The notes beneath the pieces are model-generated. The model was not told the origin of the DNA and did no database searches. It worked only from the letters and a program-made list of their open reading frames with translations. This document shows, piece by piece, positions 14,743 through 63,814 of a DNA stretch of 64,000 nucleotides. The stretch spans positions 13,713-77,712 of the forward strand of contig JBPOHU010000001.1 in NCBI GenBank assembly GCA_052035195.1. The letters run 5' to 3'. Each line of letters begins with the position of its first letter. Within the stretch, counting starts at the first letter, position 1. This DNA is from Candidatus Nomurabacteria bacterium. Lineage in GTDB: Bacteria > Patescibacteriota > Minisyncoccia > Phycocordibacterales > UBA9973. Position numbers and translations under genes: made by a program.

Positions 14743-15987
14743 ATGATTCGTCAAGATTTCGACAAGTTAAAATTCCCAGAAACACCAGGGGTATATGCCT
14801 GGCGTGATGCAGAAGGCAAAATCCTATATATAGGCAAGGCTACATCACTTCGCGATCGTGTGAGAAGTTATTTTTCTCCTGATGTTATTAAGACTCGTGG
14901 TCCACATATTGTAGATATGGTATTTAAGTCTCACACAGTTACATACCAAGAAACAATGAATGCTCTCGAAGCCCTTATCCTTGAAGCCAACTTAATTAAA
15001 AAATATAAACCTTATTACAATACCAAGGAAAAAGATGATAAGAGCTTTAATTGTGTTGCTATAACAAAAGAAGACTTCCCAAAAGTTATTTTAGTTAGGC
15101 AAAAAGATATAGATATAAAAAATAAAACAGTTAGAGCTCTAAGACACCCTAAGCCTATGTCGTACGATGTTATTTTTGGTCCCTATCCAAAAGGTTCAGC
15201 TATCAAAGAAGCCTTAAAAATCCTTAGACCAATTTTCCCTTTTAGAGATTTAGCTTCTTCAAAGAAAGACAATACTGTTTTTTATAGACAAATAGGACTT
15301 TCTCCAGATGTCATAAATAAAGATGCACAAATAGAATACAAAAAAACAATAAAAAGATTAAAAATGGTTTTTCAAGGGAAGTTTCAGTCTCTTTTAAAAG
15401 AACTCAAAAAAGAAATGTTATCTTTAGCTAATAAACAAAAATTTGAATTAGCAAATGTTTTGAAACAAAAAGTCTTTGCCCTAGAACATATTCAAGATAT
15501 TTCTTTGATAAAAAGAGATTTAGAAAGCACTGTCATAGGAGAAGAATTTCGTATAGAAGCGTATGATGTAGCGCATATTAGCGGAGCGTCTATGGTTGGT
15601 GTTATGACAGTGGTTACAAATTCAAGTTCTGATAAGTCTGCATATCGCAAATTTATTATCAAAGGTTTTGATAAGGCCAATGACGCTGGAGCTTTGAGAG
15701 AAATACTCACACGACGTTTTGGTCATCCAGAATGGGGAACGCCAAATGCTATTGTGGTAGACGGTAACCTTATACAGGTAAATGTAGCCAAAGAAGCTCT
15801 AAAAAATCTATCTTTGGATATACCAATAATTGCCGTTACAAAGGACGAACGTCATAGACCCAAGGCTATTAGCGGACCAAAGGAGATAGTTGAGAAAAAT
15901 AAATACGCAATACTTTTGGCAAATAACGAAGCTCATCGTTACGCTATAACTTTCCACAAAACTCGACGTAAAAAATCATTCGTGTAA
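14743..15987 (+). CDS. uvrC: UvrC-like excinuclease, shortened (GIY-YIG domain plus RNase-H-like endonuclease domain; no UvrBC-interaction or HhH region apparent)
   Basis: GIY-YIG N-terminus (PGVYAWRDAEGKILYIGKATSLRDRVRSYF..EALILEANLIKKYKPYYN) and the UvrC C-half signature EAYDVAHISGASMVGVMTVV..DKSAYRKF. Only 414 aa, against about 600 for a canonical UvrC. Confidence 0.7.
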   Translation: MIRQDFDKLKFPETPGVYAWRDAEGKILYIGKATSLRDRVRSYFSPDVIKTRGPHIVDMVFKSHTVTYQETMNALEALILEANLIKKYKPYYNTKEKDDKSFNCVAITKEDFPKVILVRQKDIDIKNKTVRALRHPKPMSYDVIFGPYPKGSAIKEALKILRPIFPFRDLASSKKDNTVFYRQIGLSPDVINKDAQIEYKKTIKRLKMVFQGKFQSLLKELKKEMLSLANKQKFELANVLKQKVFALEHIQDISLIKRDLESTVIGEEFRIEAYDVAHISGASMVGVMTVVTNSSSDKSAYRKFIIKGFDKANDAGALREILTRRFGHPEWGTPNAIVVDGNLIQVNVAKEALKNLSLDIPIIAVTKDERHRPKAISGPKEIVEKNKYAILLANNEAHRYAITFHKTRRKKSFV

Positions 15988-19997: not shown

Positions 19998-20742
19998 TAG
20001 GTGGTACCTCAGGAGTAGTTTCAGTTGTATCTTCTACTGTGATATCTGTTTCTGTTACTAAATTTAAATCAGAGGTTAGTTGTTCTATTTCTTTAGATAT
20101 AATCTTATTTTCTTCAGCAGAAACCTTCTCTATAGTAGCATCGACTGCTTTTAATGCGTCACTTTGATCTTCTGTACTACCATCAACTATGTACTTCTGG
20201 ATATCTTCTTTTTGATTTTTAAGACTTTGTTCAAGTGTAGCAGTTACTTTTAGGGCCTCACTCGGCTCTGCGTCAGATAGAGTACCAAGCTCTTTAGAAA
20301 AATCTTTTATATGAGTATCTAGAGCTCTTTGAGCAGTCTCTTGTTTTGCTTTAGTAAGAGTTTTTGAAGCCGCCAAAGTCTTTATTTCACTTAATCGATT
20401 ATCAATACGAGTACTTTGCCATGAGAGTTTTTCTTCAGGAGTTGTTAAGAAGGCACCTTTAACTTCTTCGTTAACATTTATTTTGAAAGAGTATAGAGGG
20501 TCTCCCGGAAGAGAATTATCAGCTACAACAGAAACACTTCCTCCAACAAAGACAACAAATAGGAAAGTAGATAGACCTATTCTTAAGCCATGTTGTATCC
20601 CTCTGTGGAATATTGAAACAACAGGAGTTGATCGAGATATTTGAATATTTCTAGCAATAGAAGCACGAAGAATAGCACGCTCATCATTAGAGAGGTGTAT
20701 GTCTTTAAACATCTTTAATTGTTCGATTTTTTTCTCAATCAT
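19975..20742 (-). CDS. Putative anti-sigma factor / membrane protein with periplasmic coiled-coil domain
   Basis: Overlaps the stop of the upstream ECF sigma gene by 8 nt. Single TM helix (LSTFLFVVFVGGSVSVV), then a helical ectodomain. Confidence 0.4.
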   Translation of the reverse strand: MIEKKIEQLKMFKDIHLSNDERAILRASIARNIQISRSTPVVSIFHRGIQHGLRIGLSTFLFVVFVGGSVSVVADNSLPGDPLYSFKINVNEEVKGAFLTTPEEKLSWQSTRIDNRLSEIKTLAASKTLTKAKQETAQRALDTHIKDFSKELGTLSDAEPSEALKVTATLEQSLKNQKEDIQKYIVDGSTEDQSDALKAVDATIEKVSAEENKIISKEIEQLTSDLNLVTETDITVEDTTETTPEVPPTTLPATQ

Positions 20743-21253
20743 AAATTGTTTCGTTATAGCGACCTTTAAGTTTTTGGATAATTCTATGAATACGAACAGT
20801 CATAGCATTGACGCTTTTGCCGTATAAGCTCGCAATTTCTTCGATAGGTTTTTCTTCTGTGTATCTAAGGAAAATAATTTGCTTACTTTCTTCATCTAGC
20901 TCTTCGAGTAGCCCTTGAACCATTTTGATATCATCATTTCTGAATATTTCATCAGTATGAGTATTTGTTTCTGGGTCAAAACCATTTTCAAGTAGGGAGT
21001 CTAGAGAGGAACTTTTGCTCTTTTTGTAATAATCAATAACAGCATTTTTTGCTATTCGATAGACGAATGCTTGTTCGTGTAGCACCTCTCCTCCTTTGGC
21101 TAAATAGCCCCAAAGCCTTACAAAAGTGTCTTGGGTGATATCTAGGGCAATATGGCGAGAGCCAACACGAAAGAAAACAAAGCGAAATATCGCATCTTGA
21201 TATTCTTCAAATAGCTTGGAAAATAAGGCTTGTTGTTCGTTTTCGCGATTCAT
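20735..21253 (-). CDS. ECF-type RNA polymerase sigma-70 factor
   Basis: Region 2 (QDTFVRLWGYLAKG..AFVYRIAKNAVIDYY) and region 4 HTH (EIASLYGKSVNAMTVRIHRIIQKLK). Start taken at the internal ATG (MNRENEQ). Confidence 0.75.
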   Translation of the reverse strand: MNRENEQQALFSKLFEEYQDAIFRFVFFRVGSRHIALDITQDTFVRLWGYLAKGGEVLHEQAFVYRIAKNAVIDYYKKSKSSSLDSLLENGFDPETNTHTDEIFRNDDIKMVQGLLEELDEESKQIIFLRYTEEKPIEEIASLYGKSVNAMTVRIHRIIQKLKGRYNETIYD

Positions 21254-21346
21254 AGAACGATTCAATCTTAGTGACGAAGTAAAGCCACAGATATTACATA
21301 TTATACACAACATTTTGTTTTAAAGCATATTTGCTATAATAGCCCA

Positions 21347-52603: not shown

Positions 52604-53299
52604 ATGATAAAAAAAGAGTTTGAGAGAAAAAATGCTATCAAGTTAAGAAAGCAAGGTCTCACGTACCAAGAAATTTTAAATAAAATACCTGTTGCCAAGT
52701 CCACGCTCTCTCTGTGGCTTCGTGATGTTGGTTTGGCAAAGAGACAAAAACAAATTCTTTCACAAAAGAAAATTTTATCCGCCAAAAGGGGTGGTATCGC
52801 AAAGAAAAATCAAAGAATTGAAAAGCTTAATACTATTGTTAATAATGCCTCAAAGGATATTGGCACAATCTCTGATAAAGAATTGTTTTTGATAGGTACG
52901 ACGCTCTATTGGGCTGAAGGAGCAAAAGAAAAGCCTGATAGACCAGGCTCTGGATTCCAATTTGGCAACATGGATCCAAGGATGGTGCAGGTGGTTCTCG
53001 CTTGGTTAGAAAGGGTATGTAAAATTCAAAAAAGTATGGTAGTATACGAGCTGTACATTCATAAAAGCCATAAAAACAGGCTCTCAGAGATGGTAAAATA
53101 CTGGGAGAATACTCTTGGTTTGAACAGAGGCAGTATTACTAAAGTTTATTTAAAAAATAACCAATCTAGCAATACAAACCGTAAAAATACAGGATCAGAG
53201 TATCGAGGACTTATCCGCATACGAGTAAATCAAAGCTCTACTCTAGTTAGAGAGATTGCAGGATGGGTCAATGGCATATATAAAGAAATTTGTGAATAA
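52604..53299 (+). CDS. HTH-domain protein with a LAGLIDADG-like motif (possible homing-endonuclease-like DNA-binding protein)
   Basis: N-terminal HTH (LRKQGLTYQEILNKIPVAKSTLSLWLRDV). Central LFLIGTTLYWAEGAK resembles a LAGLIDADG helix. Ends 1 nt before tRNA-Gln. Confidence 0.35.
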   Translation: MIKKEFERKNAIKLRKQGLTYQEILNKIPVAKSTLSLWLRDVGLAKRQKQILSQKKILSAKRGGIAKKNQRIEKLNTIVNNASKDIGTISDKELFLIGTTLYWAEGAKEKPDRPGSGFQFGNMDPRMVQVVLAWLERVCKIQKSMVVYELYIHKSHKNRLSEMVKYWENTLGLNRGSITKVYLKNNQSSNTNRKNTGSEYRGLIRIRVNQSSTLVREIAGWVNGIYKEICE

Positions 53300-53300
53300 A

Positions 53301-53375
53301 GCTGGGGTATCGTCTAACGGCAGGACTACGGTTTTTGGTACCGTCTATCGAGGTTCGAATCCTTGTACCCCAGCT
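53301..53375 (+). tRNA. tRNA-Gln (anticodon UUG)
   Basis: GCTGGGGTATCGTCTAACGGCAGGACTACGGTTTTTGGTACCGTCTATCGAGGTTCGAATCCTTGTACCCCAGCT. Anticodon arm ACGGT-TTTTGGT-ACCGT, T-loop GGTTCGAATCC. No encoded CCA. Confidence 0.8.
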
Positions 53376-53576
53376 TTGCACATAAATTTCTTTTGACTGA
53401 AAAAGTTTTAGGCGACCGCGTGCCACCATAGCTTTCTTTGACCCAACGTAGCTTTAGCGAAGTAGGTAGCGGTGGAGCAAGGAGAGATTCCTTGTCGGGT
53501 AGCTAGAGGAGGGTAATTTGTTATACAGACAAATTATCTTTACATAAAGCAAAAACTTCTATGATAGAATATCTAA

Positions 53577-54191: not shown

Positions 54192-54325
54192 AACGCAAAA
54201 GAGCCGCGAAGCGCGACTCTCTTTAGCGATAGTAATACTATATACAAACACTGATTATTTGTCAAGTCAAGATGTGCATAACTCAACCAAACTTAGATAA
54301 ACAACCTTAATTTGCAATAAATACT

Positions 54326-54366
54326 GTTCTAATATCGCCCCAAACCTTCAGCAAATAAGCTATACT
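54326..54366 (+). repeat. Island intergenic motif copy 1 (full, promoter-type: ..GTTCTAATATCGCCCCAAACCTTCAGCAAATAAGCTATACT)
   Basis: Ends in a TATACT -10-like box 6 nt before ATG 54373. Confidence 0.6.
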
Positions 54367-54372
54367 TTAATT

Positions 54373-54837
54373 ATGGAACAATTACTTAATTCGAACGAGA
54401 AGCCAGAATCATCAAAAATAATTGATGAACAACTTGAGGCGCTTAAAAAAAATACTCAAGAAAATATAGAGGATAATGAATTCCTATTAAAACACCATTT
54501 TGAACTTTTAAAGAGATATATTGAAATACTCAAAGATAGTGAAGACTGGATCAAAGAAATGATTGCTTTTAGTAAGCAGAATGAAGAAATGGACAATTTC
54601 TTTAAAGAGCAAGGCAAAGAATCATCATTTTCTAGCAGATCGTATACGGTTGAGGATGTAGAAAGAGAGTTACAAAATATTGAAAAAATAAAATCTGAAA
54701 TAAAAGAAATTCATAGACTTATTACTGATATGCAACTTGATACAGTAAAAGAAAGAGAAGATTTAGATCTATTAAATGAATTGGAAAAAGAATTTAAGGA
54801 AACTGTAATGAGGATTGCCCCAGACCGACTGAATTAA
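54373..54837 (+). CDS. Hypothetical acidic coiled-coil protein (154 aa)
   Basis: ORF with a -10 box 6 nt upstream. No recognizable domain. Confidence 0.4.
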   Translation: MEQLLNSNEKPESSKIIDEQLEALKKNTQENIEDNEFLLKHHFELLKRYIEILKDSEDWIKEMIAFSKQNEEMDNFFKEQGKESSFSSRSYTVEDVERELQNIEKIKSEIKEIHRLITDMQLDTVKEREDLDLLNELEKEFKETVMRIAPDRLN

Positions 54838-54845
54838 TCAGTATA

Positions 54846-54894
54846 GTTCCAACATCGCCCCAAACTGCCAGCTACGACTTTTTTGAGTTATAAT
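54846..54894 (+). repeat. Island intergenic motif copy 2 (GTTCCAACATCGCCCCAAACTGCCAGC..TATAAT)
   Basis: TATAAT at 54889-54894, 6 nt before ATG 54901. Confidence 0.6.
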
Positions 54895-54900
54895 TAAATT

Positions 54901-55425
54901 ATGAAAGTTTTACTAACAGGTGTCGCAGGGACAGGAAAGTCTACAATAATAAATTCTCTAAATGAAAAAGGGTTAGTTGCTATTGATCTTCATGACATAC
55001 CTGGGTTATTTTTTTGGCAAGACAAAATAACTAAAGAGAAGGTTCCATATTCTCCTGTTCAATTAAGAGAGTGGTTTGATAACGTAGATAGACTTTGTGA
55101 TATTGATACATTAAAAGAAATATTAGACCAATATCAAGATGTTGTTATGGCTGGGACAACAAGCGGTAGTAATCAAAAAGAATTCTTATCACTTTTTGAT
55201 AAAGTGATACTTTTGCAAGCAAATCCCCAGACGCTAGTTGATCGTATGGAAACGAGAACAAATAAATCGGGGTACGGGAAGACAAAGGCAGAGCAAGAAG
55301 ATAATGTTGAATGGCAAAAAGAATTCGAACCGCTTTTGCTCTCTTATGGAGCTATTCCTGTAAGTACTGAAGAAGAACTTGATGATGTAGTAGATAGAGT
55401 TATTACAGTATTAAACATTAAGTAA
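54901..55425 (+). CDS. P-loop NTPase, small nucleotide/nucleoside-kinase-like (AAA_33/shikimate-kinase-like fold)
   Basis: Walker A LLTGVAGTGKST at the extreme N-terminus. 174 aa. Confidence 0.5.
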   Translation: MKVLLTGVAGTGKSTIINSLNEKGLVAIDLHDIPGLFFWQDKITKEKVPYSPVQLREWFDNVDRLCDIDTLKEILDQYQDVVMAGTTSGSNQKEFLSLFDKVILLQANPQTLVDRMETRTNKSGYGKTKAEQEDNVEWQKEFEPLLLSYGAIPVSTEEELDDVVDRVITVLNIK

Positions 55426-55477
55426 GGTTCCAACATAAACCTAAACCCTTAGCAAATATTTTGGAAATAAAAAAAAT
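55426..55477 (+). repeat. Island intergenic motif copy 3 (GGTTCCAACATAAACCTAAACCCTTAGCAAATATTTTGGAAATAAAAAAA) followed by terminator hairpin 55478-55499
   Basis: Starts immediately after the stop at 55425. The hairpin GGCTTCG..CGAAGCC plus the A-run act as a terminator for the minus-strand gene 55507-55986. Confidence 0.6.
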
Positions 55478-55506
55478 GGCTTCGCGTATTTACGAAGCCA
55501 TCAAAG

Positions 55507-55986
55507 CTACTTTTCATTTATACTGAAACCGTGGATAGAAACTTTAGCAGGGTCAATATTTTTTTCAAATACAAACACACTCAATTCTTTCAAAGTGACA
55601 ACATTCGTGTTGTTTTGTGCGTGTTGTTCTATCAGAATTTTTATTTTCCCTTTCAATCTGTTTTCTCGAAAATCATTTATGTTCTGAGTAACAACTTCCC
55701 AGTCCTCTATGGATAGGTGGAGAGACTTGTCTTTCGGGTATTTAAGATGATCAAGATATTTACCTATCAAGACCAACGGTTCTACACCCAAAACCTCACT
55801 TATTGCTAAAATGGCATCGAGAGTCGCACGGGATGTACCTAATTCATAAGAACTCCACTGTGCCTGTGATATTTTCAATAATACAGAACAGTTTGCTTGG
55901 GTGAGGTTTTTATACTTCCTCACCTCCTTTAGAGCGAGGCCAAAAGCGTTAGTGTTGTTTTCTTTCATTAATGAAGTTTTGTTCAT
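55507..55986 (-). CDS. XRE-family helix-turn-helix transcriptional regulator
   Basis: HTH_3-like segment LKEVRKYKNLTQANCSVLLKISQAQWSSYELGTSRATLDAILAISEVLGV. Confidence 0.6.
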   Translation of the reverse strand: MNKTSLMKENNTNAFGLALKEVRKYKNLTQANCSVLLKISQAQWSSYELGTSRATLDAILAISEVLGVEPLVLIGKYLDHLKYPKDKSLHLSIEDWEVVTQNINDFRENRLKGKIKILIEQHAQNNTNVVTLKELSVFVFEKNIDPAKVSIHGFSINEK

Positions 55987-56018
55987 CTTACAACTTATCC
56001 AACTTTTGTCAATAAACA

Positions 56019-56115
56019 GGTTCTAACATCTCTTCGGCAAGTTAACAGTGAGTCTGTCGAACTGCTCAGAATAAACTTTCCCATACGGCCAGCAAATATT
56101 TTGGAAATAAAAAAA
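56019..56115 (+). repeat. Island intergenic motif copy 4 (split: GGTTCTAACATC .. about 58-nt insert .. CCAGCAAATATTTTGGAAATAAAAAAA) followed by hairpin 56116-56133
   Basis: The two motif halves are separated by inserted sequence. The hairpin GCCACC..GGTGGC terminates the minus-strand gene 56144-56533. Confidence 0.5.
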
Positions 56116-56143
56116 GCCACCTTTTAGGGTGGCCTGAGGGATA

Positions 56144-56533
56144 TCAGAGCATTTTTTCTCTGAATTCCTTAAGTCCTTCAGCATGTGTTGTGTGTATGAA
56201 CTCTCCGGTATCAGGAGCTCGGAAGCATCCCAGTGTATACGGTCGTCCGTCCTTGGTCTCAATATAAAGAGAATCTCCAGGGCGAATTTCCCAGAAATCT
56301 TTTTTTACGAGAACAAATGTAGTCTCGATGGGTACACTCGCTTTTTTTGTTACGAGGGTTGCTCTTATTCTCATAAGCAAGGCAGGACAATTTTCGAATA
56401 CTTCTTTTTCTTTGCAACTGATTGTGGCCTTTTGAAATTCAAATTCAGTTGAATCAAGAAGAAATTCGATGAGTTTTTTGAGAATGTCTAAAGAGACAAT
56501 CTCGGAGGCGCTAAGTGATTTAAAGAACGTCAT
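56144..56533 (-). CDS. Hypothetical protein (129 aa)
   Basis: ORF with a motif/terminator unit at its 3' end. The palindrome TTGACTACAAGTCAA lies about 85 nt upstream. Confidence 0.35.
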   Translation of the reverse strand: MTFFKSLSASEIVSLDILKKLIEFLLDSTEFEFQKATISCKEKEVFENCPALLMRIRATLVTKKASVPIETTFVLVKKDFWEIRPGDSLYIETKDGRPYTLGCFRAPDTGEFIHTTHAEGLKEFREKML

Positions 56534-56616
56534 AATAATCCAATTTTAGGATTTATTGGCAGGGAATACCCGCTACCAAACTACAGTTTTAGTAGTATTT
56601 ATATTATACTATATTA

Positions 56617-56631
56617 TTGACTACAAGTCAA
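56617..56631. promoter_or_regulatory. Perfect palindrome TTGACT-ACA-AGTCAA
   Basis: Inverted-repeat arms TTGACT/AGTCAA with a 3-nt spacer, upstream of the minus-strand gene 56144-56533. Confidence 0.35.
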
Positions 56632-56663
56632 TGTACTAAAGCCGAACTCTGTACTTTGGTAAT

Positions 56664-56691
56664 CAGTAAATATTTTAGAAATAAAAAAAAA
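56664..56691 (+). repeat. Island motif copy 5 (3' half: CAGTAAATATTTTAGAAATAAAAAAAAA) plus hairpin 56691-56704
   Basis: The hairpin AGAGC-CGAA-GCTCT terminates the minus-strand gene 56715-56999. Confidence 0.5.
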
Positions 56692-56714
56692 GAGCCGAAG
56701 CTCTTTAATCTTTT

Positions 56715-56999
56715 TTAATCAGAAATAGGTTCGAGAAAAAATAAAGTATCAATAAGTCGAACACTGGAAAAAGGGAAGCTGTAAGGATTGTTTCTTATTT
56801 TTACTATCTTATTAACGACTTTATGTCGAGGGAAAATAATAGAAACTATTATAGAAGGTTTATTTTCCATCTCTAACACTTCTTCCTCATCATAAAAATT
56901 ACCGATGTAGGACCGAATTCCATATTGTATTTTCCCTTGACCTCTCATCTTAACCTTAGGGTATTCTAACCCTGCACTATTAGTACTATTATTGTTCAT
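56715..56999 (-). CDS. Hypothetical protein (94 aa)
   Basis: ORF bounded by a motif/terminator unit. Confidence 0.3.
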   Translation of the reverse strand: MNNNSTNSAGLEYPKVKMRGQGKIQYGIRSYIGNFYDEEEVLEMENKPSIIVSIIFPRHKVVNKIVKIRNNPYSFPFSSVRLIDTLFFLEPISD

Positions 57000-57080
57000 A
57001 CCTCTTTTTTAATTATAGTATCTCTTTTGAAATGAAAGTCAAAGTCCAAACTTTCTGTTTACACAGGTAGTCCATATAGT

Positions 57081-57105
57081 CAGCAAATATTTTGGAAATA
57101 AAAAA
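57081..57105 (+). repeat. Island motif copy 6 (3' half: CAGCAAATATTTTGGAAATAAAAAA) plus hairpin 57106-57122
   Basis: The hairpin GTTCCC-GATTT-GGGAAC terminates the minus-strand gene 57145-57747. Confidence 0.5.
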
Positions 57106-57144
57106 GTTCCCGATTTGGGAACTGTTAATCTTTACAAAGTAAAC

Positions 57145-57747
57145 TCAAACCTTTCTTTTTGTTAGGTACATGAACAATGAATTCATTACGAATAAATAAA
57201 GAGGAAAGAGTGCATACACCCATGCATACCCGATACAAATGATAAGAGTAAATGCCCAGGATAATACTCCGTACAACCATGCTGAAGATTTTTCAGATTC
57301 TGGTTTTGTATAAGCATTATGAATGGTTGGGATTGCAACAATAAAATCCGCAATAATTCCGAAGATGGTGGTTACGAGGGCATTTTTTGTAGATAGATAT
57401 ATACCTACACAAATCATGCCTAAAATAAGACACCACCAATCCATAGGTTTTATGCTGTAACTTTTAACTGCAAATGCGGTGACGGCAATGATGACACAGA
57501 AAATTACTGAAGTAAGGATTGTTATCTGGTTCCACTCAAACCCGTTTTTAATGACCTGAGAAGTAAGACTGATTCCCATCATGAGCGCCCAACCGATCCA
57601 TGAGAGGGGGCGTGGCTTTATTCTCTTTTCATGATTTTTGTTAACAATAGAAGCTATATAAGCGAGGCTTGCTGCAACTAGTAATAGCCCAGCAATGGCA
57701 CTTAATGATTGCTCCATAAAACTTGGAAGAAAGCTAATTAATTGCAT
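57145..57747 (-). CDS. Integral membrane protein (about 6 TM), hypothetical
   Basis: Hydrophobic segments throughout. 200 aa. Confidence 0.45.
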   Translation of the reverse strand: MQLISFLPSFMEQSLSAIAGLLLVAASLAYIASIVNKNHEKRIKPRPLSWIGWALMMGISLTSQVIKNGFEWNQITILTSVIFCVIIAVTAFAVKSYSIKPMDWWCLILGMICVGIYLSTKNALVTTIFGIIADFIVAIPTIHNAYTKPESEKSSAWLYGVLSWAFTLIICIGYAWVYALFPLYLFVMNSLFMYLTKRKV

Positions 57748-57815
57748 TTCGTATATTTTTTGTTGTGAAATTTAATTTTAAATTAACACTAAAATATAAT
57801 CTTGTCAAGTATCTT

Positions 57816-57857
57816 GGTTCCAACACTATCCCGCACTGCCAGCAAATAGGTTATAAT
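57816..57857 (+). repeat. Island motif copy 7 (full, promoter-type: GGTTCCAACACTATCCCGCACTGCCAGCAAATAGGTTATAAT)
   Basis: TATAAT at 57852-57857, 6 nt before ATG 57864. TTGTCAAGT lies 25 nt upstream. Confidence 0.6.
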
Positions 57858-57863
57858 CATTTT

Positions 57864-58244
57864 ATGAAAATTAAAGAATCAGATAGAGAGCTTTTCTTTG
57901 GTCTCGAAACAAGTCTCCACAAAAAAGATATCCGGAATTCTATAGAAAAAACCTCAGAACTTCTCGCGGATGATTTTATTGAATTTGGAAGTTCAGGAAT
58001 AAAATATGACAAAGCGTTTACTTTAGATTCTTTAAGTAAAGAACAGGTTGATTTAGAAATAACAGTTGAAGATTTTGAAGTAAAATACCTTTCTGAGGAT
58101 GTAGTGCTCGTAACTTACAAAACTTCAAAGCTAGATCCTAAAAATGGAGAAAAATTCTGTTCACTTAGAAGTTCGATATGGAGATTTAATGGAGATAAGT
58201 GGGCTATGGTATTTCATCAGGGGACTAAGGTATTAAACCAATAG
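57864..58244 (+). CDS. NTF2-like / SnoaL-like (DUF4440-type) small protein
   Basis: MKIKESDREL..; the C-terminal WRFNGDKWAMVFHQGT is typical of NTF2-like DUF4440. The ORF-track start at 57765 would read through the promoter motif. Confidence 0.5.
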   Translation: MKIKESDRELFFGLETSLHKKDIRNSIEKTSELLADDFIEFGSSGIKYDKAFTLDSLSKEQVDLEITVEDFEVKYLSEDVVLVTYKTSKLDPKNGEKFCSLRSSIWRFNGDKWAMVFHQGTKVLNQ

Positions 58245-58292
58245 CGGTCCCAGCTTCGTCCCAAACTCCCAGCAAATTTTTAGAAATAAAAA
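58245..58292 (+). repeat. Island motif copy 8 (GCGGTCCCAGCTTCGTCCCAAACTCCCAGCAAATTTTTAGAAATAAAAA) plus hairpin 58293-58313
   Basis: Starts right after the stop at 58244. The hairpin TTAGCCG..CGGCTAA terminates the minus-strand gene 58321-58614. Confidence 0.6.
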
Positions 58293-58320
58293 TTAGCCGA
58301 TTTAAACGGCTAATGAATAA

Positions 58321-58614
58321 TTATAGTTTTACATTTAACACAGTTAAAACATATCCTCCTATAGCAAATGCTCCGATGATAACTATCACTATTGATAAAG
58401 AAAAAACTAGTTCACCTAGTCGGTCTTCATTATCGAATGAATTTTTTGTTTCTAAGATACCAAAAAAACCAAACAATGTAGTATAGAGAGCAAAACTAAG
58501 CAGGGTAAATGTTGTCTTAAATTTGGGGTTAATAATTTGAATGAACATCAAGATCAAGAATAGGAGAAGCGATATAATCGCGAGTGTTAATAAAACACGT
58601 TTAAATATTTTCAT
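58321..58614 (-). CDS. Small membrane protein (97 aa, 3 TM), hypothetical
   Basis: Hydrophobic ORF. Confidence 0.35.
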   Translation of the reverse strand: MKIFKRVLLTLAIISLLLFLILMFIQIINPKFKTTFTLLSFALYTTLFGFFGILETKNSFDNEDRLGELVFSLSIVIVIIGAFAIGGYVLTVLNVKL

Positions 58615-58663
58615 TAGTTAGATTTTTTTGTATATTACACTATATTACTTGTTTGTCAATAAA

Positions 58664-58705
58664 GCGGTTCTAACATCGACCCAAATCCAACAAATAAGTT
58701 ATACT
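58664..58705 (+). repeat. Island motif copy 9 (full, promoter-type: GCGGTTCTAACATCGACCCAAATCCAACAAATAAGTTATACT)
   Basis: TATACT at 58700-58705, 8 nt before ATG 58714. TTTGTCAAT lies just upstream. Confidence 0.6.
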
Positions 58706-58713
58706 TAGTTTCT

Positions 58714-59214
58714 ATGGAAAATACTCCGTTAAATAATCCTGAACGCAAAGAAACTGTTATTCCTGAGTTGAAAATAATATCAGATAAAGAATTGGTTGAT
58801 CTTATATATCAGAAAAAAAGTTTTCCTCAAGATAACAGGTTTCTTCCTGTAGACCAAGGCGGTGTATTTAAATACTTTGATCTTGAAGATATTATCGGAG
58901 CAAATAGTTATTCAAAAACAAAAAAGTTATATCCTAATGTATCCTTAGAAAATGAAATAGTTGGTTTAGCTGAACTTGAAGAGGACCCTAATAATGAAAA
59001 AAACTATTGGATGAAATTTGTTTCTGTTGATCCAAAATATCAAGGAAGGGGATATGCATCATTATTAATAAATAAAATATTTGAATATGCAAAAGAAAAT
59101 AACTATTCTTTGCAACCATCGTTTTATTCAAATGAAGGAGAATTAAAATTGAAAAAAGTAATGGATAGAGCTATTGCTGAAAGCGGTGTGGTTATTATTG
59201 ATGGTCACAAATAA
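58714..59214 (+). CDS. GNAT-family N-acetyltransferase
   Basis: Motif A region FVSVDPKYQGRGYASLLINKIFEYAKENN (Q/R-x-x-G-x-G/A). Confidence 0.6.
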   Translation: MENTPLNNPERKETVIPELKIISDKELVDLIYQKKSFPQDNRFLPVDQGGVFKYFDLEDIIGANSYSKTKKLYPNVSLENEIVGLAELEEDPNNEKNYWMKFVSVDPKYQGRGYASLLINKIFEYAKENNYSLQPSFYSNEGELKLKKVMDRAIAESGVVIIDGHK

Positions 59215-59254
59215 TATCTCTAACACTCTCCTTGTGCAGGCAGGGCCATACAAT

Positions 59255-59280
59255 CAGTAAATATTTTAGAAATAAAAAAC
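59255..59280 (+). repeat. Island motif copy 10 (3' half: CAGTAAATATTTTAGAAATAAAAAAC)
   Basis: Sequence match to copies 5 and 6. No hairpin follows. Confidence 0.4.
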
Positions 59281-59317
59281 ATTATTCTTCTTGGATCTTC
59301 TGCGCTATTATAAATAT

Positions 59318-59701
59318 ATGCTTGAGTCATTTCCAGAACAAGAAAAATCACCAATACCCGAGAAGCCGTTGATTGAAAAACGACAGATTTTTGATATGTA
59401 TAAGATATCTGGAAAAGAAGATGCTCGTTTTAGAGAAATTTTAATAGCATATCTTGGACAAAGACAAGATCTTTTACATGATGATGAATTGGAGAGTATT
59501 AAGGAAGAAGGAAAAAGAAATGAACATGTTCGAGAGACTATTGAGTGGAATATAGAAAAAGCTGAGATGTTCATCGAAGTTGGTTTGTTGGACGAAGCCC
59601 AAGAAACAATAGAAGATATTATAGATGGCGTAAAAGATCCTTATTTTGGAAAAATGAGAGAGATACTCGATACCATAGAAAAGATGCGTAATTTAAAATA
59701 G
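59318..59701 (+). CDS. Hypothetical acidic protein (about 127 aa)
   Basis: ATG preceded directly by TATAAATAT. The ORF-track start at 59291 is a TTG. Confidence 0.35.
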   Translation: MLESFPEQEKSPIPEKPLIEKRQIFDMYKISGKEDARFREILIAYLGQRQDLLHDDELESIKEEGKRNEHVRETIEWNIEKAEMFIEVGLLDEAQETIEDIIDGVKDPYFGKMREILDTIEKMRNLK

Positions 59702-59781
59702 TTATTTATCAATAAACAGGGTTTCCCTCTGTTCAATAAACTCAGAATAGACTGAGTAAAAATAAAAAGAGCCTGTAATTT

Positions 59782-60540
59782 TTACAAGCTCTTTGGAAAA
59801 AATTTACGCCGAAACATACGACATACCCAATTGAAAAAGAACACCCCAGTAAGTAAAAATAATTTTGGCCTTCGAATACAATGCTTAAGAAAGGCTCCGC
59901 AGGTCTTCAGAGAACAGAAGAAATATACAAGAAGATTCCGAAAGGTAGGCTTAACACTTATTATGTTTGCTTTCCAGTCTCTTTTGAAATCTAACAAAGT
60001 ATCAATCACATCTCCTGCCTTAGAAAGGTCTTCAACAAATGCAGTAAAATCAGGTGTGCTTTTTTCAATAAAAAGAAGTACAAGTTCACTAGTGAGAAGG
60101 CCTTCTTCTTTCGTGAGTTGAAACAATTCTTTCGCAGAACTAGCTTTACGTATCCTTTCTGATTGAGTAAACACTGCTTGTACAGTACGAGATAAATCAA
60201 TACGATCCCTATTTGATCTGATATTTTTTAGCAGATAGGTCATCATTTCATCTATAGCCAAAGGGAAAGCATTGTTGGTCTGGGAATAAAGAATTCTTCG
60301 GATAACCTTATCTTGAAATTCTTTTCTATCTTCCTTACTGCTTGATGAATCAATCTTGTCATCAATAAACACCATGACAGCAAACAATACCTGTAGCACT
60401 TTTTGTTCTTGTTGTGAAGGATTTAATTTGAAAGCTTTTGCAGATTTAAATAAATAGTAGCTACTTTTCTGATACGCGTACCGTAAATGTGGTCGTAAAT
60501 CTTTTTTCCAGTCGGATGAACTAAGAATCAGACTTTCCAT
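59782..60540 (-). CDS. Isoprenoid (squalene/phytoene) synthase-like protein, divergent
   Basis: LFAVMVFIDDKID resembles the first Asp-rich motif (YaFcRxxDDxxD). AGDVIDTLLDFKRD resembles the second. Low similarity otherwise; the C-terminus is hydrophobic and unusual. Confidence 0.35.
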   Translation of the reverse strand: MESLILSSSDWKKDLRPHLRYAYQKSSYYLFKSAKAFKLNPSQQEQKVLQVLFAVMVFIDDKIDSSSSKEDRKEFQDKVIRRILYSQTNNAFPLAIDEMMTYLLKNIRSNRDRIDLSRTVQAVFTQSERIRKASSAKELFQLTKEEGLLTSELVLLFIEKSTPDFTAFVEDLSKAGDVIDTLLDFKRDWKANIISVKPTFRNLLVYFFCSLKTCGAFLKHCIRRPKLFLLTGVFFFNWVCRMFRRKFFPKSL

Positions 60541-60713
60541 TTAAATTAAAGTTTTTAGTTAAAGAACGGACATCTAACTATCTGCACAAATAGTTCGTCA
60601 GAGGTTAGATAACTTGAAACAAACATTATAATCTATTATTCATATTGTCAATATTAATCTTTTAGTTTTAACCTAAAAGATTAAATAACTTAAGATAGGT
60701 TATAATAGAGATT

Positions 60714-61103
60714 ATGAAAACCATTTTAGTTGACGCAATAGATTGTTTTGTTTCTGATAAAGGAGAGATTTTTCAAGAAATGCATGACCTTCTTGAGACA
60801 TATCCAAATAAGAAAATTATTGTAACCGGTGCAGACGATGAACAGTTTAAAACCTTCGGTCTAGATAAAATGCCATACGAAGTATTTACCTTAAAGCATG
60901 ACCCAGAAAAAACTAATCCAAAGTATTTTAAAATGCTTCTTGAACAATATAGATTAGATAAAGATGGCGTTGTTTATTTTGAACACAACCGTTATGCAGT
61001 TGAGAGTGCGCAGATAGCAGGGATCGTTAGTTATTTTTATGATAATTCTTCAAAAGACTTGAAAGCTCTCAAGGCTTTCTTGGATGAAAATCTTGAAAAA
61101 TAA
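60714..61103 (+). CDS. Small HAD-like hydrolase fold protein (129 aa), tentative
   Basis: N-terminal ILVDAIDCF resembles HAD motif I (hhhDxDx). TATAAT lies 7 nt upstream of the ATG. Confidence 0.35.
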   Translation: MKTILVDAIDCFVSDKGEIFQEMHDLLETYPNKKIIVTGADDEQFKTFGLDKMPYEVFTLKHDPEKTNPKYFKMLLEQYRLDKDGVVYFEHNRYAVESAQIAGIVSYFYDNSSKDLKALKAFLDENLEK

Positions 61104-61120
61104 AAAAACCTGAAACTTTT

Positions 61121-61378
61121 TTAAGTTTTCAGGTTTTGATTTATTTTACCGGGCTTTTTCTTCTGATGGATTAGATGTTCTTCCTTTGTTGTCGTATTTT
61201 CTCCATTTGATTCTTTTTCAATCAAAGCTTTTGCTTTTTCCTTGCAAACAGTACAAGTTATTTCATCTATATCTCTAAAGGAAACCCAGTCATGATTTTT
61301 TGGCCAGTCTTTTGCAAATTTTTTCGAGAAACCGCAAAGTGGATCACTCGTACAAAGAGCGTGCATTATCTTTGCCAT
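61121..61378 (-). CDS. Small Cys-containing protein (85 aa), hypothetical
   Basis: Four Cys residues (ALCTSDPLCGF..ITCTVCKEK). Consensus promoter TTGACA-16-TAATAT upstream on the minus strand. Confidence 0.3.
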   Translation of the reverse strand: MAKIMHALCTSDPLCGFSKKFAKDWPKNHDWVSFRDIDEITCTVCKEKAKALIEKESNGENTTTKEEHLIHQKKKPGKINQNLKT

Positions 61379-61403
61379 AAATGTACTTATTTAAATTTGT
61401 CTT

Positions 61404-61470
61404 TATATTACAAGCTAAATTCTCTTTGTCAAATAAAAAAGTCTTTTGTCACAATATGACAAAAGACTTT
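61404..61470 (-). promoter_or_regulatory. Terminator-promoter unit on minus strand (hairpin 61440-61468 plus T-run; TTGACA-16-TAATAT)
   Basis: Reverse complement of tgtcaa at 61427-61432 is the -35 box; reverse complement of atatta at 61405-61410 is the -10 box. The same unit design (conserved flank TGATATTACAAGCTAAA..TTTGTCAAATAAAAAA) recurs at 62307-62338, 62819-62858 and 63768-63838. Confidence 0.5.
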
Positions 61471-61473
61471 GAC

Positions 61474-62277
61474 TTAATCTATCTCTTTTTCGGGGGTAAA
61501 CAAACTGAATGTTTCCTCGTGTAATCCTAAGCGCAGTGCCTCTACCTCAAGAATTCTCTCCGGAGAAATGTTGCTTAGATTACAATTCGTACCGAGAAGT
61601 TGGATAAAGTAAACCTGTTGGAGTTTTTGTGGTGCTCCCCAGACGATTTGTTCCGGAAGTATTTGGGTGATTATTTCTTGCACCAGACCTTCACGTACCT
61701 CACCTGATCCACGGTATATACCCACATTTCCAGCATCTTTACTTTCTGCAAACACGTACTTTGAGCCACATTCGAGTTCTGAACGCATCAGTTCAATCCA
61801 TTTATATGGAGGAATAATGTATGCTGGGTCTTTCGATCCAACCTTGCTGTAAACAGTACCTATTCTTGCAAGCTTTTCGATATAGCTACATTTTTCTGAA
61901 GGATGGATAGTCACACATCCATCACTTACCATAAATGTGTCTATTTGGTTTTTTTCGCACAGTTCCATGTAGCCGTCGAACTTATCTCTTTTCAGAAATG
62001 CTTCGAAAACTATTCCCGACAAAAACGGGGTGATGTTTAGTTTCTTGCAGAGCGATACCCTTTTTTGTAAATCATTACTAATAAGGGCTTCGGGGCCGAT
62101 CTCCAGAACATCGATGTGTTTGTGGTACGATAGTGCGTTTTCGAGAGTTTTAAGAGGGATACCTCTATCTACGAGGACATTGATTCCTGATTGTCTCGGT
62201 TTTGCATTTCGTTCAGGGAGATCAAAATATGAAAACCCTTCTAAGATGGTGTTGTTTTCTTTATTCATTTTTAACAA
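61474..62277 (-). CDS. comA: (2R)-phospho-3-sulfolactate synthase (ComA family)
   Basis: FDLPERNAKPRQSGINVLVDRGIPL matches the ComA N-terminal LPxxxKPRxxGLTxVxDxGL pattern. 267 aa, a typical size. Confidence 0.55.
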   Translation of the reverse strand: MLKMNKENNTILEGFSYFDLPERNAKPRQSGINVLVDRGIPLKTLENALSYHKHIDVLEIGPEALISNDLQKRVSLCKKLNITPFLSGIVFEAFLKRDKFDGYMELCEKNQIDTFMVSDGCVTIHPSEKCSYIEKLARIGTVYSKVGSKDPAYIIPPYKWIELMRSELECGSKYVFAESKDAGNVGIYRGSGEVREGLVQEIITQILPEQIVWGAPQKLQQVYFIQLLGTNCNLSNISPERILEVEALRLGLHEETFSLFTPEKEID

Positions 62278-62355
62278 TTTTCTTTACATTACTATATAAA
62301 AATATGTTGTCAAATAAAAAAGCTGAAATTATTCAGCTTTTGTTTTAGAGGAGTA

Positions 62356-62802
62356 TTAGTTTGCATTTTCGTAGAGATGTGAAGAAAGCTCTATTTCTAT
62401 GAGAGTTTCTTTTGTGAGACTTTTTCTCTTGGCCTTAAAATCATACCTGTTGTCAGAAAGCCATACTGTGTAGGAGAGTAGGTTGTCGTATTCTTTAAAT
62501 TCTCCGTCAGGATGAAATGCTCCTGCGTGTGCAAAAAATAAAAAGTTTGAACCCGCCACCTTCATGATCTCGTTGAGGTGAGTAGTTCCATTTGAAGACT
62601 TCATGTCGTGGATACTATTGTAAATATTCAAGACATCTTTTTTTGAAAACCCATCACTTCCTTCTATGACAGTGATACAGGTCGATATCTTCAGTGCCTC
62701 CGGTTGTTCGAGAAGGAAGAACAGTATCTTTTTTGCCAATTCTGTGGCATCTTTTGAATGGATAATGAGGTACTTTACTGCCTCTGTTTGTGTGTTGTTC
62801 AT
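62356..62802 (-). CDS. Hypothetical protein (148 aa)
   Basis: ORF with a consensus promoter upstream and hairpin terminator (62321-62338) downstream. Confidence 0.35.
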   Translation of the reverse strand: MNNTQTEAVKYLIIHSKDATELAKKILFFLLEQPEALKISTCITVIEGSDGFSKKDVLNIYNSIHDMKSSNGTTHLNEIMKVAGSNFLFFAHAGAFHPDGEFKEYDNLLSYTVWLSDNRYDFKAKRKSLTKETLIEIELSSHLYENAN

Positions 62803-62899
62803 TACTTAAGGTTTTGTTTGATATTACAACCTAAACTCTTTTTGTCAAATAAAAAAAGTTGACTAGCACTTATGTTCTTATTTGAGTATTATTGTTTTA

Positions 62900-63463
62900 A
62901 TGGAAAGATTATTAAAGACATATAGAGCATGGAGATTTAAAAACACTTTTTTGTTGATAGGGATTCTTGTTTTTGTTTTTTATGCTACGGGTACTACAGC
63001 AGGGCAACAAGTTGTCTTGAGTATTTCCAAGCTAGGATACTTCGGGTCTTTTATTGCAGGAATGTTTTTTGTTTCTACTTTTACTGTGGCTCCTGCAGGA
63101 GTTGTACTTTTTAAATTTGCGCAAATATATAATCCGATACTTATAGCACTTTCAGCAGGAGTAGGAGCGGTGATAGGAGATTATATTATTTTTCGATTTT
63201 TGAAAGATAATGTTTTTGAAGAGATAAAACCTGTATTTATGAAATTAGGGGGGTCTCATATTACACACCTGCTCGGGACCCCATATTTTGGATGGTTGGC
63301 GCCAGTTTTAGGGGCTATAATTATCGCTTCACCTTTCCCAGATGAAATAGGGGTAGGACTTATGGGGATCTCAAAGCTTAAAAACTGGCAGTTTCTTTTG
63401 ATATCATTTTTACTCAATAGTGTAGGAATATTACTTATCGTTACTCTGGCAAAATCTATTTAG
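62900..63463 (+). CDS. DedA/SNARE-associated (VTT-domain) family membrane protein, tentative
   Basis: Multi-TM protein with Gly-rich re-entrant-like segments (GYFGSFIAGMFFVSTFTVAPAG; GVGAVIGDYIIF). Start taken at ATG 62900. Confidence 0.4.
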   Translation: MERLLKTYRAWRFKNTFLLIGILVFVFYATGTTAGQQVVLSISKLGYFGSFIAGMFFVSTFTVAPAGVVLFKFAQIYNPILIALSAGVGAVIGDYIIFRFLKDNVFEEIKPVFMKLGGSHITHLLGTPYFGWLAPVLGAIIIASPFPDEIGVGLMGISKLKNWQFLLISFLLNSVGILLIVTLAKSI

Positions 63464-63513
63464 TACTATAGATATTTATTAAAATAAAAAAAGAGCCGTA
63501 GCTCCTTTTAATT

Positions 63514-63753
63514 TTAATGATTTTTGAAATACACCTGGTCTTCGGCGGTTGGTTTGACTCTTGAGTGTCCACGTCCCATTGGAATAAGGGTGACATCGGC
63601 AATACCGTCACCATCTTCATCAATTATTTCTGACCAGCCGTTTGGTGTATTCCGGTCTACTATTTTGTTAGGAATGATCTTCTTAAGTACAGAAGGAGCA
63701 ATAATAGTACACATTAAGACTATTAAAGATGCCCAAATAAATACTTTTCTCAT
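63514..63753 (-). CDS. Small secreted protein (79 aa), hypothetical
   Basis: Signal peptide MRKVFIWASLIVLMCTIIAPS. Consensus TTGACA-16-TAATAT promoter upstream. Confidence 0.35.
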   Translation of the reverse strand: MRKVFIWASLIVLMCTIIAPSVLKKIIPNKIVDRNTPNGWSEIIDEDGDGIADVTLIPMGRGHSRVKPTAEDQVYFKNH

Positions 63754-63814
63754 GTTAACTTTTTTCTTGATATTACAAGTAAACTGCGTTTTGTCAATTT
63801 TTTTAAAACAAAAT

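Follow-up and report, generated by a model that had tools for sequence, protein, structure and literature searches.

Results

A directional repeat lies between the genes downstream of tRNA-Gln

We analysed a 64-kb stretch of DNA from a Candidatus Nomurabacteria bacterium (contig JBPOHU010000001.1 of assembly GCA_052035195.1, positions 13,713 to 77,712), referred to here as the window, in which a short repeat recurs between the genes of a variable region beside a tRNA-Gln gene. The gene order is dnaX, a 231-amino-acid (aa) open reading frame (ORF), tRNA-Gln and a gene for a NYN-domain protein, followed by an array of ten genes (54373-59701), five on the plus and five on the minus strand. By Pfam, these genes are small and mutually unrelated, encoding a coiled-coil protein, an AAA_18 kinase-like protein, an XRE-family regulator, DUF4440 and GNAT proteins, membrane proteins and ORFans. 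Each has its own -10 or -35/-10 elements, and usually its own terminator. Every intergenic gap between 54.3 and 59.8 kb holds one copy of the repeat, which is ~35-50 bases long and occurs as six full copies (at 54325, 54845, 55425/6, 57815/6, 58245/6 and 58665), one split copy, three 3'-half copies and one degenerate copy, all 11 on the plus strand (Table 1).

Alignment of the copies yielded the conserved core GGTTCYAACATCGnCCCAAACnnCCAGCAAATA, composed of a 5' box, a mid box and a 3' box and often preceded by a 5' extension, TTGTCAATAAAnn. This extension corresponds to the -35 element of the leftward gene where such a gene exists, and is also found without a leftward gene at 54309 and 59706. 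An ungapped scan with the 33-nucleotide (nt) consensus detected five copies at ≤8 mismatches and none on the other strand or in the rest of the 64 kb, while 200 shuffles of the sequence contained no match even at ≤10 mismatches. Exact GGTTCYAACA occurs four times, every time inside the island, and the tail TTTTRGAAATAAAAA six times against 0.28 expected, always on the plus strand (55459, 56099, 56673, 57090, 58278 and 59264), these matches taking in all three 3'-half copies. A sequence-only model, R1, recovered six of six full copies together with both halves of the split copy (56018-56030 and 56079-56099). Since R1 was trained partly on window copies, these matches are circular; on DNA outside its training set it found six sites in the array of another species (L052, E 1e-8 to 9e-3) and one in a further assembly (L076).

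An earlier note on this DNA had described the motif in at least ten copies of constant orientation. The consensus scan, R1 and the tail count bear out its coordinates and the plus orientation; all ten copies were recovered, and an eleventh, degenerate copy was added to them. The 3'-half copies do have the tails described (56664, 57081 and 59255), but they also retain weak 5' boxes (TCCAAAC at ~57045, TCTAACAC at 59219). Inserts in split copies measure 27 to 160 nt. Within the window the motif is confined to the array: it was not found in the other 58 kb, nor in the flanks of related loci, and a genome-wide promoter consensus is rejected on this ground. The motif is a real, specific junction repeat that is probably functional.

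Promoters and terminators at the motif belong to the neighbouring genes

Motif copies end in two ways, either in a terminator-type A-rich tail (class A) or in a TATAMT box (class B). Seven of the 11 copies carry the A-rich tail, six of which face the terminator of an oncoming gene, while the seventh, at 59255, lacks a hairpin. The hairpins that follow five class-A copies are terminator-like on the minus strand. The ending given earlier for copies ahead of minus-strand genes, AAATAAAAAA plus a hairpin, is indeed present at the motif, but it is the layout of terminators throughout the window, with 22 sites against 2.5 expected. Likewise, the rule that the ending follows the strand of the next gene was confirmed as to its two endings but fails at 59255, where a tail without a hairpin precedes a plus-strand gene (59318-59701).

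In class-B copies, the TATAMT box lies 6-8 nt before the start codon (box/ATG at 54361-66/54373, 54889-94/54901, 57852-57/57864 and 58700-05/58714). Other plus-strand genes of the variable region have the same -10 layout without the motif, and the box is the downstream gene's own -10 element, not part of the motif. All plus-strand array genes combine a -10 box at this distance with the lack of a Shine-Dalgarno sequence (54361-54375, 54889-54903, 57852-57866, 58700-58716 and 59306-59320), a layout that implies that their predicted mRNAs would be leaderless. Leftward genes have near-perfect TTGACAAA-N12-TGTAATAT promoters, and such perfect matches occur in the window only at 55985-63797, on the minus strand. 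As a separate observation, these promoters often abut the preceding terminator (hairpin-TTTTTTATTTGACAA), and the two then make up a composite terminator-promoter junction that recalls the promoter early stem-loop (PeSL) elements of phages.

These data bear on the idea that the motif is the upstream part of a special promoter for island genes, read by an alternative sigma factor or an activator. Four copies do have a TATAMT box 2-19 nt after the 3' box with an ATG 6-8 nt further on, and a gene for an extracytoplasmic function (ECF)-type sigma factor, read from its translation, lies at 20735-21313. However, the A-rich tails mean that most copies (six of the ten listed earlier) do not end in a -10 element; the distance from CCAGC to the -10 element varies from 8 to ~20 nt among copies preceding a plus-strand gene; the split copy contains a 48-nt insert; and CCCAAAC, the mid box found where a -35 element would be, does not resemble TTGACA, whereas the island's other promoters are near-perfect matches to consensus. 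Moreover, three full copies (55426, 58245 and 14892 in the related strain L010) are flanked by convergent genes, each copy immediately following a stop codon and preceding the terminator of the oncoming gene, so that no promoter is needed there. With copies in such places and with variable -10 spacing, the earlier argument against a simple gene-associated promoter holds, and we consider a promoter role very improbable.

Table 1 Motif copies and landmarks of the array (window coordinates).
Feature	Position	Strand	Basis	Remarks
tRNA-Gln(UUG)	53303..53374	+	ARAGORN; Rfam tRNA 54 bits	Same orientation as all motif copies
Left edge of variable region (GTCAAGATGTGCATAAC)	54266..54282	+	Relatives conserved up to here, differ beyond	
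Copy 1, full, class B	54324..54366	+	R1 31.2 bits; 6/33 mismatches to consensus	TATACT 6 nt before ATG 54373; degenerate 5' box; TTTGCAATAAATA 5' extension without leftward gene
Copy 2, full, class B, between two plus-strand genes	54845..54894	+	R1, consensus scan	Variant 3' box CCAGCTACGA; TATAAT 6 nt before ATG 54901
Copy 3, full, class A	55426..55502	+	Sequence, tail count, terminator fold, R1	TTTTGGAAATAAAAAA and terminator hairpin of minus-strand HTH gene; convergent genes either side; directly 3' of TAA stop
XRE-family helix-turn-helix (HTH) gene	55507..55986	-	Pfam HTH_31/HTH_3	
Copy 4, split	56004..56135	+	R1, sequence	48-nt insert parts 5' box (56019-56030) from mid and 3' boxes (56079-56098); TTGTCAATAAACA 5' extension; class A tail; hairpin
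Copy 5, 3' half (CAGTAAATATTTTAGAAATAAAAA)	56640..56706	+	Tail count, sequence	Weak 5' part; terminator hairpin
Copy 6, 3' half	57045..57123	+	Tail count, sequence	Weak 5' box (GTCCAAAC); longer spacer; terminator hairpin
Copy 7, full, class B, between divergent genes	57800..57857	+	R1, consensus scan	5' box abutted by -35 of leftward 200-aa gene; TATAAT 6 nt before ATG 57864
Copy 8, full, class A, between convergent genes	58245..58314	+	R1, terminator fold, strain alignment	
Copy 9, full, class B	58650..58705	+	R1, sequence, strain alignment	3' box CAACAAATA; TATACT 8 nt before ATG 58714
Copy 10, 3' half	59215..59279	+	Tail count, sequence	Listed earlier at 59255; TCTAACAC 5' box; GC-rich palindrome relic; TTTTAGAAATAAAAAA ending, class A tail, no hairpin
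Copy 11, degenerate (ATCAATAAACAGGGTTTCC ... CTCAGAATAGAC ... AAAAATAAAAAG and hairpin)	59702..59770	+	Read from sequence; missed by R1	Resembles split copy 4

Gene content differs between near-identical strains at motif copies

Close relatives of the window were collected as contigs with exact copies of its NYN and HTH proteins, from independent assemblies in NCBI, JGI, ENA and Logan. Their flanks are 98-99.5% identical, while the gene content of the array differs, with at least three array versions. Some contigs, including L012 and L014, are colinear with the window; L011, L013 and L015 carry three other genes instead of the window's eight after 57106; and in L010, L032 and L034 a SET-domain gene and a 150-aa gene replace the 129-aa and 94-aa genes, one different gene follows the DUF4440 gene, and further differences lie beyond.

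The points at which homology breaks were mapped by aligning these versions. The window and L010 are 98.6% identical up to 56030, within the 5' box of copy 4. Identity returns at 57085-58291, from the 3' box of copy 6 to the end of the class-A tail of copy 8, and again from 60695, exactly at ATA|GGTTATAAT, where the same 129-aa gene is preceded by a full motif in L010. L011 and L013 are 99.5% identical to the window up to 57106, the end of the tail of copy 6. After the DUF4440 gene, allelic motif copies align and homology ends at GAAATAAAA|, followed by unrelated hairpins or terminators and unrelated genes (BLASTP E=0.26). Allelic copies also occur beside different genes: the counterpart of copy 4 in L010 (13642-13755) is 90% identical and has different neighbours, and the allele of copy 9 (15326-15393) is 84% identical and then followed by a different gene. 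Gene-content differences between strains are bounded by motif copies, beginning and ending in or at them, which supports the recombination unit or cassette-boundary relics proposed in the earlier note.

Related arrays in other species

Related copies were detected in at least four other Paceibacteria assemblies, and all identified copies share the strand of the tRNA gene beside them. The copies and tRNA-Gln are on the plus strand in the window, the R1-detected copies and tRNA-Gln on the minus strand in L052, both tRNA and copies on the plus strand in L002, and the copies and two tRNA-Ser genes on the plus strand in L075; in all four, the copies are downstream of the tRNA. A single copy in L076 lies ~600 nt upstream of tRNA-Arg. 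In L002, a Nomurabacteria metagenome-assembled genome, four copies lie at the end of a contig, and some of them occupy junctions that are orthologous to those flanking the AAA_18 and XRE genes. L051-L053 represent another species, with 81% core-gene identity, whose variable region is likewise bordered by the conserved dnaX and cyt-b5 and shares with the window only the XRE gene and, from one nucleotide match, a 187-aa gene. The array of this species in L052 holds ~10 motif copies.

L075 was found through a 67%-identical homologue of the DUF4440 protein. Its array, downstream of the two tRNA-Ser genes and a GIY-YIG ORF, contains five motif relatives with the consensus GGTTCCRACATCCTGCCAYAACGCCTGCAAA, all in tRNA orientation. 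The DUF4440 gene is flanked on both sides by array-specific motif copies at a tRNA-Gln locus in the window and at a tRNA-Ser locus in L075, implying that the motif travels with cassettes. Motif copies of the window and L052 are 73% alike, compared with 75% within the window's lineage and 81% identity in core genes, and single copies of the two species match at 96-97% at non-orthologous places. By this comparison the motif is conserved above coding DNA, and with such cross-species likeness it is either constrained or spreading and does more than decay.

Wider searches gave few relatives. Among GTDB genomes scanned for the class-A half, L002 was the one true match, and a second match, inside a dnaB-like coding region, was rejected as chance. 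The same half gave only chance matches in JGI metagenomes (23S-like sequence and coding regions), and in IMG/VR either nothing or chance matches within coding sequence. Neither PLSDB plasmids nor INPHARED phages matched the array in blastn searches (query 54200-59800).

The XRE gene is the only array gene common to the arrays of three species (window, L002 and L052); its product is ~79% identical in L002 (tblastx) and 78% in L052 (protein P0123), with 80% nucleotide identity in the latter, and a motif copy always abuts the -35 element of its promoter. These observations, the conservation of the motif above coding DNA and the fixed 6-nt distance of the 5' box from the -35 elements of leftward genes fit an array of protein-binding sites, at which a regulator or insulator such as the XRE protein would silence or partition acquired cassettes, with breakpoints falling there only as the one repeated sequence. 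However, the 33-nt, asymmetric site is unlike the operators usually bound by XRE proteins (HTH_3-family dimers), in L075 and L076 no XRE homologue lies within 8 kb of the motif, copies between convergent genes have nothing to regulate, and the tRNA linkage and polarity would be left unexplained. We therefore regard a binding-site array as unlikely to account for the motif, although a regulatory or insulating role could coexist with either of the exchange mechanisms discussed below.

Resemblance of the motif to tRNA 3' ends

In L052, the array starts at the 3' end of tRNA-Gln itself (...GAGGTTCGAGTCCTTGTCGGGCAGC|AAATAGAAATAAAAAAC and a hairpin, with the junction GGGCAGC|AAATAGAAATAAAAAAC). The motif's 3' box and tail match this tRNA end and its trailer (CAGCAAATA...GAAATAAAAAA; p<0.0005, post hoc), and the first copy in L075 corresponds to a partial tRNA-Ser 3' end (p=0.0055, post hoc). 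For the 5' and mid boxes, the resemblance is instead to tRNA-Trp, at its 3' end (TTCC.ACATCGCCC/GCCA/CAAA; TTCCTACATCGCCC-GCCA-CAAA in the tRNA versus TTCCAACATCGCCC[CAAACT]GCCAGCAAA in the motif), with a post hoc shuffle p=0.0005 and a score equal to the best of 3000 random genomic 62-mers; the tRNA-Trp gene lies 14 kb away on the opposite strand. The motif possibly descends from a tRNA 3' end. The positional link, with arrays beside tRNA genes and a shared polarity, is firmer than this ancestry.

Several further elements near these tRNA genes were noted. A ~90-nt GC-rich element lies just 3' of tRNA-Gln (53410-53498), with a 95.5%-identical copy inside a motif copy of L010 (12998-13086) and shorter versions in motif copies of L052; its end, AAGGAGAGATTCCTTGTCGG|GYAGC, has the appearance of the T-arm and acceptor 3' strand of the L052-type tRNA-Gln allele, and neither an Rfam match nor a significant fold was obtained for it. 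Several motif copies and a tRNA-Gln pseudo-copy are interrupted by a GC-rich palindrome, TGTCTGCGCATGCAGGGCAGGCAGG or similar (window 59231-59247; L011 at ~14130; three motif copies and the tRNA pseudo-copy in L052), which may be a small mobile element in its own right. In L002 (1361-1430), L049 (5230-5298) and L076 (11160-11193), tRNA-Gln or tRNA-Arg is closely followed by a partial duplicate of the adjacent tRNA, either its anticodon arm or its 3' end; we read these duplicates as signs of repeated insertion at tRNA genes in this lineage.

Partial tRNA copies beside tRNA genes, present in L002, L049, L052, L075 and L076, are what would be expected if the motif copies were inert scars, that is, decaying partial-tRNA attachment (att) remnants of larger integrated elements eroded to single genes. 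The degenerate and split copies in the window fit this idea, and the concept is documented for tRNA-anchored islands (10.1101/2020.12.28.424599). Scars should nevertheless drift apart, whereas the motif, which is distinct from the host tRNA, holds to its consensus both inside a species and across species. In addition, no integrase was found in the arrays of the window, L010, L011, L052 or L075, the array ORFs of the window showed no integrase fragments, and one site per gene is far denser than in islands of integrase-carrying elements. An origin as inert scars is in our view improbable.

The motif lacks the structure of known recombination sites

Predicted DNA folds of four copies on both strands were no better than those of shuffled sequences (z -2.15 to +0.97) and had no common hairpin, and RNAalifold on 22 copies from five arrays returned zero consensus pairs. 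The sole complementarity is a 6-bp TTCCAA/TTGGAA pairing confined to class-A copies. Together, the single-copy and consensus folds rule out attC or another hairpin site, which settles the comparison with integron attC sites that had been proposed in the negative. Judged from sequence alone, the site also has no CATAA-N6-TTATG-type core as in Xer/dif-like sites, and was set aside as a serine-integrase att site, its outer arms reaching only 9/12 symmetry in class-A copies. In the proposed comparison with miniature inverted-repeat transposable elements (MITEs), no terminal inverted repeats or target-site duplications were evident in the copies read, no dedicated search having been run. Rfam searches of 52.5-62.5 kb, by gathering threshold and by E-value, gave tRNAs only, with all other hits at E >= 0.06 and below gathering; a known RNA family was rejected accordingly.

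Neighbouring genes

The left edge of the variable region is preceded by a near-consensus leftward promoter serving no gene (TTGACA-17-TATAGT; 54237-54282 including GTCAAGATGTGCATAAC), and both promoter and edge are kept downstream of NYN in relatives. In L047 and L048, DNA resembling an integrative and conjugative element (ICE), with a large serine recombinase and a TrwB-type protein, lies immediately past 54282, marking this position as a separate insertion hotspot. A partnership between the NYN gene and the array was rejected, since in other species NYN homologues do not lie beside such arrays; NYN homologues carry Nomurabacteria names. The 231-aa ORF (52604-53299) fills the gap between dnaX and tRNA-Gln and has a weak N-terminal HTH and no assigned family. 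Pfam, NCBIfam and PDB sequence searches gave nothing usable for it as a nuclease or recombinase, and a single-sequence AlphaFold model reached a predicted local distance difference test (pLDDT) score of 53. The equivalent place in L052 (15361-15830) is taken by a small GIY-YIG ORF, flanking which the 5' half of tRNA-Gln is duplicated, and in L075 (5832-6426) tRNA-Ser and a partial copy of it enclose a GIY-YIG ORF. The cargo does not form a defence island: PADLOC returned weak single-domain matches and no recognisable defence system.

Discussion

Gene exchange at the motif

The reading that we favour, and hold tentatively, is that the motif is an att-like junction site of a single-gene cassette array anchored 3' of a tRNA gene. 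Each cassette would carry its own expression signals, a rightward gene through its -10 box 6-8 nt before the ATG in a leaderless layout, and a leftward gene through a sigma-70-type promoter and, at its opposite end, a terminator hairpin. Since promoter and terminator come with the cassette, its gene could point either way, while the polarity of the junction would follow the anchoring tRNA and stay constant, because neither integration at directly repeated sites nor exchange between them would alter it. Cassettes would be gained, lost and replaced by recombination at motif sites, and we lean slightly towards conservative site-specific recombination by a recombinase encoded elsewhere, on account of the conservation above coding level, the tRNA-type anchor and the presence of one site per gene. 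Recognition of the site by such an enzyme, a crossover near the 3' box (CAGCAAATA|) and a derivation of the site from a tRNA 3' end and its trailer are what we infer from these features. Homologous recombination between repeated copies would add deletions and swaps.

A number of observations weigh against this junction-site reading. Breakpoints are scattered within the site, with positions past the 5' box, inside the 3' box and where the tail ends, and one boundary, at 61431, is a terminator/-35 junction without a motif; this pattern is explained at least as well by homology-driven exchange as by a fixed crossover. The allelic copies at 58245-58258 and L010 14894-14907 differ by five single-nucleotide polymorphisms (SNPs), grouped in the 5' box and followed by 19 identical nt, which suggests a short conversion patch. 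The site lacks symmetry or structure of the kind that known recombinase sites show. No recombinase domain was found by Pfam in the ORFs at 52.6-63.5 kb; ORFs of the other ~53 kb of the window, read by eye, appeared to be housekeeping genes with no recombinase among them, and none was seen in the 16-20 kb that surround the arrays of L052 and L075. Likeness to tRNA is partial in sequence terms and was found post hoc, and it points to different tRNAs (a Trp-like core, a Gln trailer, Ser in L075), and an origin from the window's own tRNA-Gln was rejected as not significant (p=0.24).

Several of these points would be accommodated by homology-only modular shuffling, in which the motif and pieces of promoter and terminator form a portable intergenic module exchanged by RecA-type recombination, perhaps after natural transformation, with no dedicated recombinase. 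The scattered breakpoints, the motif-less boundary and the lack of a recombinase nearby all agree with such shuffling, as does the order of cassettes common to the strains, which is the same in all of them. The window encodes DprA, and there is precedent in the PeSLs of T4-type phages (PMC2839356). In the region of ComA (phosphosulfolactate synthase, 61202-62292), the window is 83.7% identical to L010 amid flanks of 98%, which suggests an allelic replacement in which DNA from a more distant donor was recombined in. However, the 33-nt core is neither promoter nor terminator and its conservation between 81%-identical species would go unexplained, PeSL polarity tracks transcription whereas polarity here tracks the tRNA and ignores gene strand, and exact identities between copies reach ~25 nt at most, which is marginal for RecA. 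On balance we consider shuffling by homology alone possible but rather unlikely.

Genomes of the candidate phyla radiation (CPR), or Patescibacteria, are tiny, and the acquisition and exchange of their accessory genes are poorly understood. The locus described here displays gene-by-gene turnover between strains that are 98-99.5% identical, organised by one junction sequence that recurs across species and beside different tRNAs. Extending the junction-site reading, one may picture a cassette-capture system of Paceibacteria that works like an integron with other parts: an unstructured, tRNA-3'-end-like site of ~35-50 nt, self-expressing cassettes in either direction, arrays seeded at tRNA genes (Gln, Ser), and a putative recombinase encoded elsewhere that moves cassettes between arrays and species. 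Taken as a whole, this picture is a speculative one of which we are rather doubtful. If a dedicated recombinase recognises the site, the locus would be a cassette platform mechanistically distinct from integrons; if homology alone drives exchange, it would be a chromosomal counterpart of phage PeSL shuffling. Either way, the motif offers a simple sequence handle with which to find arrays in metagenomes and trace single-gene flux in natural populations.

Comparison with known systems

Within the searchable literature, no account of arrays of this kind from CPR bacteria came to light, which is weak negative evidence, and the closest parallels lie in systems of other kinds. The array resembles integron cassette arrays, above all sedentary chromosomal integrons and clusters of attC sites lacking integron integrases (CALINs), in being a row of mostly single-ORF units of miscellaneous function with a one-orientation repeat at each boundary, in the different content of close strains, in a repeat consensus specific to the array or lineage and, as in CALINs, in having no adjacent integrase (PMC4889954). 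It differs from integrons in that no IntI, attI or Pc was found here, within the scope of the recombinase search given above; the missing IntI alone would not exclude an attC cluster, since CALINs are also without it. Known attC sites span ~57-141 nt, and the site here, at ~35-50 nt, is shorter, in an array anchored at a tRNA gene. Array genes run in both directions with their own promoter and terminator, whereas integron cassettes are mostly promoterless, co-oriented and driven by Pc. Finally, an attC site is an imperfect palindrome (R''-L''...L'-R') whose single strand folds on itself (PMC4889954), while the array has no folded palindromic site of this type.

With tRNA-anchored islands such as the tycheposon islands of Prochlorococcus (10.1101/2020.12.28.424599), the locus shares a variable region directly 3' of a tRNA, same-orientation repeats that in part resemble a tRNA 3' end, newer insertions that push older ones outwards, and a site hit by other mobile elements in relatives (serine-recombinase ICE-like DNA and GIY-YIG ORFs). 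Such serial-integration islands scatter partial tRNA copies (10.1101/2020.12.28.424599). Here, by contrast, each unit is one gene of 0.3-0.8 kb and carries neither an integrase nor a replication module, and the repeats are unlike the host tRNA, conserved among themselves and across species, and found beside Gln, Ser and Arg tRNAs.

The PeSLs of T4-type phages (PMC2839356; PMC4122927) are likewise short conserved intergenic modules, tied to strong sigma-70 promoters and stem-loop terminators, that flank small accessory ORFs in a hyperplastic region, and indels and replacements between near-identical genomes map to them. However, a PeSL is itself promoter and terminator and follows transcription, whereas the core here is neither and its polarity ignores gene strand. 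The setting also differs, being a bacterial chromosome with tRNA linkage, and mini-circles arising from exchange between neighbouring motifs are a feature of PeSLs. MITEs and repetitive extragenic palindromic (REP)-type repeats are similarly short, non-coding, multi-copy and intergenic, but the array repeat sits at one locus and on one strand, is not dispersed, and has no palindrome. The array therefore has an integron-like layout without integron parts, and is a variant of known cassette and island architectures.

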